Counted from the stretch's first letter, positions 16,982 through 17,760 are shown. The stretch is DNA of 64,000 nt from Escherichia coli (GCF_044324785.1 NZ_CP172127.1); one strand, 5' to 3'. Notes: generated by a model from the sequence alone, not told the origin. Program-made: numbers and translations.

Positions 16982-17176
16982 ATGATATTTAAATGTATTC
17001 AGTGCGAGAGGGATATAACAGCCCTGCGTTTTCACAGCGCCATCGCCGTGATGTCCGGTAAGTACCACGTACCTGCAGTACGCGTCACCCTGGTCTGTCC
17101 GTACTGCAGTCAGCATTTTTCGGCAGACGTGCCCGTCATGGAATTCTCCCGCCCTGACAGGGAGGACTCGCAATGA
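16982..17176 (+). CDS. small Cys-rich protein (zinc-ribbon-like)
   Basis: 64 aa with C-x2-C ... C-x2-C (CIQC ... CPYC). Confidence 0.4.
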   Translation: MIFKCIQCERDITALRFHSAIAVMSGKYHVPAVRVTLVCPYCSQHFSADVPVMEFSRPDREDSQ

Positions 17177-17445
17177 TTACCCCACAGGAAGCACGACAGC
17201 GCACCCGAACCCTTGTTGAACACTATGTCAACGAGTGTGAATGCCGCGACCTCACCGATGTGAAGCACGTCCTGACGGCGCTAATCAGCATGACCGCTCA
17301 GGCCATTGTGGCGACCAACGGAAAGGCGGCTGCCCTGCAGGTACTGGTGAACACACTCACCCACACGGCAGAGCACGATGTGCCGTACCGGATGGAAACC
17401 ACTGCAGAAGGCGGCCTGAACATCACCGTCGACCGGAAACACTGA
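17173..17445 (+). CDS. hypothetical early protein
   Basis: 90 aa ORF, start overlaps previous stop. Confidence 0.4.
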   Translation: MITPQEARQRTRTLVEHYVNECECRDLTDVKHVLTALISMTAQAIVATNGKAAALQVLVNTLTHTAEHDVPYRMETTAEGGLNITVDRKH

Positions 17446-17454
17446 GGGCGCGGC

Positions 17455-17760
17455 ATGACACGGAACACCGAACTCACCCGCACCGCCCTCTACCGTCTGG
17501 CCCTGCAGCGTTTCGGGCCGGACGCACAGGCCCTGAAACTGACAGAAGAGGCCGCTGAACTGGCGGCCAGTGCCGCCCGCAACCTGAACGGACAGGGCAG
17601 CGAAAGTGACCTCGCGGCAGAGCTGGCAGACGTGGAAATCATGACAGAGCAGCTGCGCCTTCAGGGAATGGACCGGCTGATTGACTTCCACAAACAGAAA
17701 AAACTGGAACGCCTTGCCGCACGGCTGGGCGTCATGTACACCGGAGATACTGAACAATGA
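17455..17760 (+). CDS. small helical protein, possibly MazG-like NTP pyrophosphohydrolase
   Basis: 101 aa; EEAAELAASAAR ... ELADVEIMTEQL pattern; weak recall-based assignment. Confidence 0.35.
   Translation: MTRNTELTRTALYRLALQRFGPDAQALKLTEEAAELAASAARNLNGQGSESDLAAELADVEIMTEQLRLQGMDRLIDFHKQKKLERLAARLGVMYTGDTEQ

Follow-up and report, generated by a model that had tools for sequence, protein, structure and literature searches.

Accessory early genes of a BcepMu-like prophage of Escherichia coli, including a probable single-domain MazG-type pyrophosphohydrolase

The 64,000-nucleotide (nt) stretch of Escherichia coli DNA analysed here (NZ_CP172127.1; the whole stretch is called the window below) carries at positions 16982–17760 three tightly packed plus-strand genes coding for proteins of 64, 90 and 101 amino acids (aa). 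They are accessory early genes of a BcepMu-like prophage, and the 101-aa product is probably a MazG-type enzyme for which removal of a nucleotide is the most plausible role. The stretch forms a dispensable, fast-turnover part of the early lytic operon extending from Gam or DUF3164 to GemA. Altogether, this is an ordinary phage accessory region, which combines two uncharacterised families of small proteins with what appears to be a divergent representative of a known kind of enzyme.

The 101-aa protein matched phrog_2245, a family annotated as nucleoside triphosphate (NTP) pyrophosphohydrolase, with an E-value of 3.8e-34. Some RefSeq records already name it 'nucleoside triphosphate pyrophosphohydrolase family protein', and the MazG-like call, being present in public annotation, is not new. 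Among 23 relatives of the protein, the residues E31, E32, E56 and D59 were invariant and E35 nearly so. The arrangement E32-x2-E35-x20-E56-x2-D59 (plus E31) corresponds to the MazG metal-binding signature E-x2-E-x12-28-E-x2-D, placed on two helices, and this acidic motif was retained in relatives with 34–48% identity to the 101-aa protein. Viral-contig relatives from unrelated phages in the same range of identity scored on Pfam MazG, and the members from loci L084 and L085 reached its gathering score, the two values being 23.3 and 22.1 bits (cut-off 22). Of the 23 close relatives, 18 matched Pfam PRA-PH and five matched MazG, all below threshold. The AlphaFold2 model (predicted local distance difference test score 81, predicted template modelling score 0.60) was wholly helical, an all-alpha bundle resembling solved members of the MazG superfamily. 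A Foldseek search with this model placed DCTPP1 on top with a probability of 0.95, albeit with weak E-values, and the structural neighbours are hydrolases of deoxynucleoside triphosphates (dNTPs) or of phosphoribosyl-ATP (PR-ATP). The PHROG match, the acidic motif and the predicted fold bear out the first-pass annotation made from the sequence alone, which had described a helical MazG-like protein of 101 aa. On the basis of sequence and model we conclude that the protein is probably a divergent single-domain member of the all-alpha NTP-pyrophosphohydrolase superfamily that has kept the catalytic motif intact.

Several observations weigh against this assignment. The 101-aa protein remained below the curated cut-offs, scoring 14.9 bits with Pfam PRA-PH (cut-off 21.3) and 14.4 bits with NCBIfam TIGR03188 (cut-off 42.7), while the NCBIfam search gave nothing above its cut-offs. 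The PDB was searched with single sequences as well as with profiles, and none of the three proteins obtained a significant match; the best match of the 101-aa protein was Bacillus MazG 5ie9 at an E-value of approximately 0.5, in an alignment spanning both acidic motifs. AlphaFold2 made residues 50–91 one unbroken helix, and the model thus does not strictly show the canonical bundle of four helices. Moreover, 58%-identical orthologues in loci L070 (4001–4306) and L072 (4001–4309) carried the replacements E56K and D59G together with an insertion of 2–3 residues; catalysis is, therefore, not universally retained, and these two proteins are possibly catalytically dead variants kept as intact open reading frames (ORFs). 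The MazG-like gene was also missing from some relatives and is thus non-essential. The missed Pfam and NCBIfam cut-offs point to a divergent phage subfamily represented by phrog_2245. An identity with HisE was not indicated either: the PRA-PH and TIGR03188 scores were those given above, and the neighbouring genes are phage early genes.

Known single-domain relatives include the Sulfolobus MazG SSO3215 (1vmg), HisE (3c90, 1yvw), the integron-borne iMazG (2q5z), YpjD of Bacillus subtilis (2gta) and DCTPP1/RS21-C6 (7mu5, 2a3q, 2oie). The 101-aa gene differs in belonging to a transposable phage's early operon and not to a housekeeping or histidine-biosynthesis context. Most of the characterised relatives use dNTPs, either canonical or modified, as substrates. 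By analogy with other single-domain members, the 101-aa protein would be expected to form a dimer or a tetramer, to bind Mg2+ via E31/E32/E35 and E56/D59, and to split a nucleoside polyphosphate at its alpha-beta phosphoanhydride bond, yielding nucleoside monophosphate and pyrophosphate. Such an enzyme, made early as replicative transposition starts, would remove a nucleotide harmful to phage replication. The protein is most likely an early-expressed Mg-dependent (d)NTP/alarmone pyrophosphohydrolase. Any statement on its substrate and on the benefit to the phage is speculative. Non-canonical or surplus (d)NTPs would be the first choice, in a house-cleaning function similar to that of DCTPP1, iMazG and cyanophage MazG, with the alarmone (p)ppGpp, the substrate of phage Atd1, as a close second. 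Of the two, dNTP house-cleaning may be given a slight preference over hydrolysis of the alarmone, although our confidence is low for both.

All three ORFs are genuine coding genes. Each is preceded by a Shine-Dalgarno sequence, which reads GAGGAG for the gene starting at 16982 (at a distance of 9 nt), GGGAGG for that at 17173 and GAGGG for that at 17455. ATGA stop/start overlaps link the 64-aa gene to the 90-aa gene (17173–17176) and the 101-aa gene to the following 227-aa gene (17757–17760), and a gap of 9 nt lies between the 90-aa and 101-aa genes. The calls of the Prokaryotic Genome Annotation Pipeline (PGAP) and RefSeq on a 100%-identical chromosome of E. coli sequence type 131 (ST131) coincided with the three ORFs of the window, and all three proteins fell in PHROG families with E-values from 1e-34 to 1e-54. 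Variable sites among close relatives were distributed over codon positions 1, 2 and 3 as 6/1/21 in the 64-aa gene, 18/15/30 in the 90-aa gene and 13/10/32 in the 101-aa gene. That one or more of these frames arose by chance, or that the opposite strand is the coding one, might be argued from the shortness of all three proteins and from the GenBank record of phage PhiKM, in which an antisense hypothetical coding sequence, XRL29420, is annotated over the zinc-ribbon (64-aa) gene (6897–7118, minus strand). However, when the variable sites of the 64-aa gene were assigned to the reading frame of the antisense ORF that overlaps it (window 16904–17173, minus strand), their distribution was 21/1/6. 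The third-position bias thus sits on the plus strand, which shows that the plus-strand gene is real and the antisense coding sequence of PhiKM a miscall. Furthermore, the cysteines of the 64-aa protein were kept across orthologues of 27–56% identity, and the PGAP calls and strong Shine-Dalgarno sequences also favour the plus strand. A chance or antisense origin was rejected on these grounds and is extremely improbable. Of the coding content described in the first-pass annotation, the 64- and 101-aa ORFs exist as proposed, but the 90-aa gene between them had been overlooked.

The early arm of the transposable prophage occupies approximately 10.3–20.4 kb of the window. Bases 16000–19700 were 96% identical to Escherichia phage PhiKM (PQ738613), classified as Bcepmuvirus. 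The upstream gene order was repressor, Ner-like protein, a 102/104-aa helix-turn-helix (HTH) protein, a 303-aa protein, an rve-type transposase, an ExeA/AAA_22-type B protein, an 89-aa protein and Gam, while downstream of the 101-aa gene followed the 227-aa DUF2786/DUF7168 gene, two small genes, GemA and Mor. In phmmer and blastp comparisons with 21 Mu early proteins, only Gam, GemA and Mor of the early arm were related to Mu sequences, and the transposase and B protein had no sequence relation to MuA and MuB. The sequence comparison thus identifies the prophage as a Mu-like phage of the BcepMu type and not as Mu proper. The Mu-style framing of the first-pass annotation is not supported in this respect, while its choice of Gam and GemA as flanks agrees with the Pfam matches of both proteins (Table 1). 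Out of 5,426 complete E. coli genomes, 620 contained a segment of 901 bases around the three genes, always on the chromosome. With approximately one ninth of the complete genomes carrying the prophage, including ST131 and other clinical lineages, even ordinary accessory genes of this kind are widespread.

The 64-aa protein represents, as judged from its sequence pattern, a genuine small, phage-restricted zinc-ribbon family of the CxxC...CPxC type. Its motif reads K-C-x2-C ... C-P-x-C-x-Q, followed by V-P-x-x-E/D-F. The four cysteines C5, C8, C39 and C42, already recognised in the first-pass annotation as a C-x2-C...C-x2-C pattern, were the same in all 13 sequences of an alignment that extended down to 27% identity, and K4, P40, V50, P51 and F55 were invariant in the orthologues over the same range. 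Pfam produced sub-threshold zinc-ribbon matches only (Zn_ribbon_3/4, LITAF-like, YnfU, Fin and Brz). An exhaustive profile search of 1.84 billion representative proteins recovered 37 clusters at E <= 1e-3, nearly all of them stand-alone proteins of 55–73 residues with the pattern KCxxC ... vDLiLxCPxCxQxYNxF, and the two-knuckle cysteine pattern was also found in 20 or more distant cluster representatives. No fused domain hinting at a function was found in this search; the long-protein matches P0120, P0127, P0129 and P0131 were dismissed as fusions, since they covered short Cys-rich stretches only. Wherever the context was readable, the genes of the family immediately followed the Gam or DUF3164 gene of a BcepMu-like phage, with the single exception of a member found in an unrelated phage beside an integrase-like gene. 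With its two CxxC/CPxC knuckles and a length of approximately 60 residues the protein resembles generic zinc ribbons (Zn_ribbon_3/4, zf-LITAF-like, YnfU, the anti-sigma-F protein Fin and Brz) and Mu Com. In contrast to the generic families, however, its family is tiny and phage-restricted, its matches to them reach no gathering score, and the family-specific C-terminal signature Q-x-Y-x3-V-P-x2-E/D-F is found neither in them nor in Com. From its motif the protein is predicted to fold round one Zn ion via the two CxxC knuckles. As its size leaves no room for catalysis, binding to a partner macromolecule is its most likely mode of action.

Homologues of the 90-aa protein were essentially confined to E. 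coli and close enterobacteria. The N-terminal third of the protein exists in alternative versions, the corresponding segment of the gene being swapped among E. coli prophages, while the remainder is conserved, with C22 and C24 (a C-x-C motif) and an ATNG motif invariant. No recognisable fold relative was found for it. It would be a helical protein with a recombining N-terminus, peculiar to the enterobacterial members of the group, and most likely also acts by binding partners.

The zinc-ribbon and MazG-like genes frequently occur together, but they are not obligate partners. The zinc-ribbon gene was found upstream of the MazG-like gene in 68 of 73 related loci, the two being either adjacent with an ATGA overlap or split by the 90-aa gene (approximately 48 of the 73 loci), and the direct overlap recurred in the more distant phage of locus L086. 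On the other hand, loci L068 and L070–72 possessed the MazG-like gene without the zinc ribbon and loci L090–93 the zinc ribbon without the MazG-like gene. The DUF2786 gene was often absent, Gam was swapped for DUF3164 in many relatives, and 11 distant MazG-like loci in unrelated phages had no consistent zinc-ribbon neighbour. Since each of the genes was gained and lost independently among the relatives, an obligate module was rejected, and common descent within a hotspot of gene flux offers the best explanation of why the zinc-ribbon and MazG-like genes occur together. An apparent zinc-ribbon::MazG-like fusion, P0037 (166 aa), at first sight a sign of a functional link, was likewise rejected as a read-through of the ATGA overlap in frameshift-rich long-read contigs. 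In the L086 locus, a distant BcepMu-like prophage, the gene following the MazG-like one (4454–4747) codes for a 97-aa protein beginning MMMFVKCPACGK; it matched the zinc-ribbon profile weakly (E 0.0014 in a 9-sequence search) and may, on this ground, be a second, unrelated small zinc-binding protein occupying the slot.

Gene turnover has also left a trace in the 101-aa gene itself, whose last six codons (TGDTEQ; window 17740–17760) are a deletion scar. Compared to PhiKM (locus L001, 7741–7983), a clean in-frame deletion of 221 bp in the window removed the gene of a 71-aa membrane protein and fused the tail of this gene in frame to the MazG-like gene, with the ATGA overlap with the DUF2786 gene preserved. 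Other relatives had inserts of approximately 0.5 kb or a C-terminal extension of roughly 70 residues at the same MazG-like/DUF2786 junction, and this variety of inserts, extension and deletion marks it as a hotspot for accessory genes.

The precedents for a phage enzyme of this kind point in two directions. The cyanophage S-PM2 MazG, likewise a phage pyrophosphohydrolase of the MazG family and regarded as an auxiliary gene, hydrolyses dGTP and dCTP, but not (p)ppGpp (PMC6850273). Its preference was linked to the difference in guanine-cytosine (GC) content between host and phage (PMC6850273), a rationale that is not transferable to the prophage, since this does not obviously differ from E. coli in GC content. 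Atd1 of Pectobacterium phage PcCB7V, in contrast, is a MazG-like (p)ppGpp hydrolase with a Km of approximately 50 uM for ppGpp and protects from TIR-STING and retron-TIR toxicity (bioRxiv 10.1101/2022.06.09.495361). The 101-aa protein might be a counter-defence enzyme of the latter type, whose early hydrolysis of (p)ppGpp would block toxin-antitoxin or abortive-infection responses triggered by the stringent response and keep the infected host active. Atd1 consists of the MazG catalytic domain alone, is encoded by a phage of an enterobacterial host and shares with the 101-aa protein the size class, the motif and the early-gene position; it also suggests a plausible function, namely to keep the infected cell productive. 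However, the other characterised phage MazG leaves (p)ppGpp untouched (PMC6850273), the structural neighbours of the 101-aa protein hydrolyse dNTPs or PR-ATP, and the nucleotidyltransferase genes that stand beside Atd1 have no counterpart at the 101-aa locus. A tblastn search with the 101-aa protein at E <= 10 against 50,697 phage records, a collection in which the presence of the Atd1 phage is unconfirmed, returned six records, none of them from a Pectobacterium phage, and gave no sequence link to Atd1. An Atd1-type function is possible but tentative. If the protein did hydrolyse (p)ppGpp or a signalling nucleotide, counter-defence of the Atd1 type would extend to temperate transposable phages, and it would then be inexpensive to include the zinc-ribbon and 90-aa proteins as candidates in screens for anti-defence activity. 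A broader proposal treats the whole stretch (zinc ribbon, 90-aa, MazG-like and DUF2786 genes) as an anti-defence island encoding small stoichiometric inhibitors of immunity, with the 90-aa protein engaged in an arms race. It would fit the early, dispensable and translationally chained small genes with their independent gain and loss, the swapped N-terminus and the weaker codon bias of the 90-aa gene, and the varied inserts in the MazG-like/DUF2786 slot. PADLOC, however, gave no match at E <= 0.01 for the 64-, 90-, 101- and 227-aa proteins, and no similarity to a characterised anti-defence protein was detected, albeit the Atd1 sequence and the dbAPIS and other anti-defence hidden Markov model libraries were not searched directly. 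We consider such an island rather unlikely, and a fully integrated early counter-defence cassette, in which the same four genes would combine destruction of alarmones or immune nucleotides with direct inhibition of host immune or stress proteins by the zinc-ribbon and 90-aa proteins and with hairpin-gated expression, somewhat more doubtful still; an anti-defence role of any kind, as suggested in the first-pass annotation, is speculation.

Two further explanations draw on phage Mu. Like those of the Mu semi-essential region (kil, gp6–gp9, gam, gp11–gp15, gemA), the genes are small, dispensable and early, and they occupy the corresponding place in the genome of a transposable phage, with Gam on one side and GemA/Mor on the other. 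They might be homologues of members of that region (kil, sot, arm, lig etc.) diverged past recognition. In contrast to this expectation, the small proteins had no sequence similarity to those of Mu: apart from Gam, GemA and Mor, phmmer (with --max) and blastp against Mup01–Mup21 gave a best E-value of 0.016 at 6 bits, and homology with the Mu semi-essential proteins, the finding against which the first-pass annotation had staked its view, did not appear. The PHROG families also differ, the prophage A protein is rve integrase-like and its B protein of the ExeA/AAA_22 type, and, to our knowledge, neither MazG-like nor zinc-ribbon folds have been reported for Mu gp11–gp15. Such hidden Mu homology is very improbable. 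The other explanation concerns a conserved non-coding hairpin of approximately 35 nt, located inside the 96-nt gam/zinc-ribbon spacer 20 nt before the zinc-ribbon start codon and present as a single copy within the window. Its core was nearly invariant, though the flanking proteins were only 27–56% identical and the upstream gene was either Gam or DUF3164. In the interrupted hairpin, 97.5% of the cells were paired, with two compensatory pairs, and several G.U variants fitted the plus strand only. A Rfam scan of 16000–20000 gave no match to it, a 3' U-tract was absent on both strands, and neither the terminator scan nor the promoter scan called the hairpin. The Com protein of Mu, a zinc finger of 62 aa, binds a stem-loop in mRNA, and with a stem-loop showing compensatory changes so close to its start codon, the 64-aa zinc ribbon might be a Com-like RNA-binding translational regulator, which binds this hairpin and controls the downstream genes. 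However, a variant of the hairpin persisted in loci without the zinc-ribbon gene (L068, L070), indicating that it belongs to the junction and not to this gene; conversely, the zinc-ribbon genes of loci L063, L086 and L090 had neither spacer nor hairpin, so the two occur independently of each other. None of 13 zinc-ribbon members matched Pfam Mu-like Com at E <= 1, the cysteine spacing of the family is unlike that of Com, and the family member beside an integrase-like gene belongs to an unrelated phage. A Com-like function is, consequently, quite unlikely. With the accessory-gene interpretation and a MazG-type enzyme preferred, the present gain is mainly one of annotation: the MazG-like call was confirmed, the strand of the 64-aa gene fixed, the 104-aa protein assigned, and no equivalents of Mu kil, sot and arm were found.

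Table 1. Positions of the three genes and of associated features in the window
Feature	Position	Strand	Evidence and identifiers
104-aa (RefSeq 102-aa) winged-helix protein, between Ner and transposase	11869–12183 (RefSeq start 11875)	+	
303-aa DUF3102-like coiled-coil protein	12194–13105	+	borderline Pfam DUF3102, E 4.2e-5, 24.2 bits (cut-off 24.4)
Gam, host-nuclease inhibitor, left landmark	16355–16885	+	Pfam Phage_Mu_Gam, E 7.8e-41; 62% identical to Mu gp10
Non-coding hairpin in the gam/zinc-ribbon spacer	16927–16963 (core 16930–16960)	+	conservation and folding
64-aa zinc-ribbon protein	16982–17176	+	RefSeq WP_000576355; phrog_3401, E 2.3e-40, function unknown
90-aa accessory protein with mosaic N-terminus, C-x-C and ATNG motif	17173–17445	+	RefSeq WP_001774057
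101-aa single-domain MazG-like protein	17455–17760	+	RefSeq WP_000197789; phrog_2245
227-aa DUF2786 + DUF7168 protein	17757–18440	+	Pfam DUF7168, E 4.9e-26; DUF2786, E 4.4e-11; phrog_421
76-aa small early gene before GemA	18437–18667	+	RefSeq WP_000631814
71-aa hydrophobic small early gene before GemA	18657–18872	+	RefSeq WP_000123379; phrog_6436
GemA, right landmark	18823–19314 (RefSeq start 18865)	+	Pfam GemA, E 1.3e-40; 36% identical to Mu gp16

The other genes of the early arm included several that could be assigned at least partially. The first-pass annotation had left the 104- and 303-aa proteins at 11875–13105 without assignment: both exist, but the former is no longer unassigned, since it matched Pfam HTH_IclR with 27.3 bits (cut-off 22), HTH_24 with 23.7 bits (cut-off 21.9) and phrog_1368 'transcriptional regulator' with an E-value of 9e-45. 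By these profile matches it is identified as a winged-helix DNA-binding regulator of the IclR/MarR type. The 303-aa protein, with its borderline DUF3102 match, belonged to phrog_1748 (E 1.9e-140), a family without known function, and no sequence relative of it was found in the PDB. The 227-aa DUF2786 gene was missing from several relatives; phrog_421 carries no function, and no functional information on DUF2786 was found in the literature. The 76-aa and 71-aa genes before GemA varied among the relatives.

The 89-aa gene located between the B protein and Gam (16058–16327) matched phrog_2041 and had no Pfam match. It was kept in nearly all related loci, and none of the three genes at 16982–17760 was retained so consistently. 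The site following it was occupied by either Gam or DUF3164 in the relatives (loci L004–L006, L048–L074, L086 and L090–L093), and this alternation at one position suggests a functional replacement of the gene for DNA-end protection. At the beginning of the early arm, a DNA adenine methylase gene (10314–11078) adjoins the repressor gene and plausibly provides the prophage with an anti-restriction function. At the opposite side, the last phage gene after Mor (19721–20431) codes for a membrane protein of 211–236 aa. Beyond it are a minus-strand ORF with a twin-arginine-like signal (20790–21245) and the beginning of an ORF similar to orfA of IS3-family transposases (21888–22130), which places the right end of the prophage near 20.5 kb.

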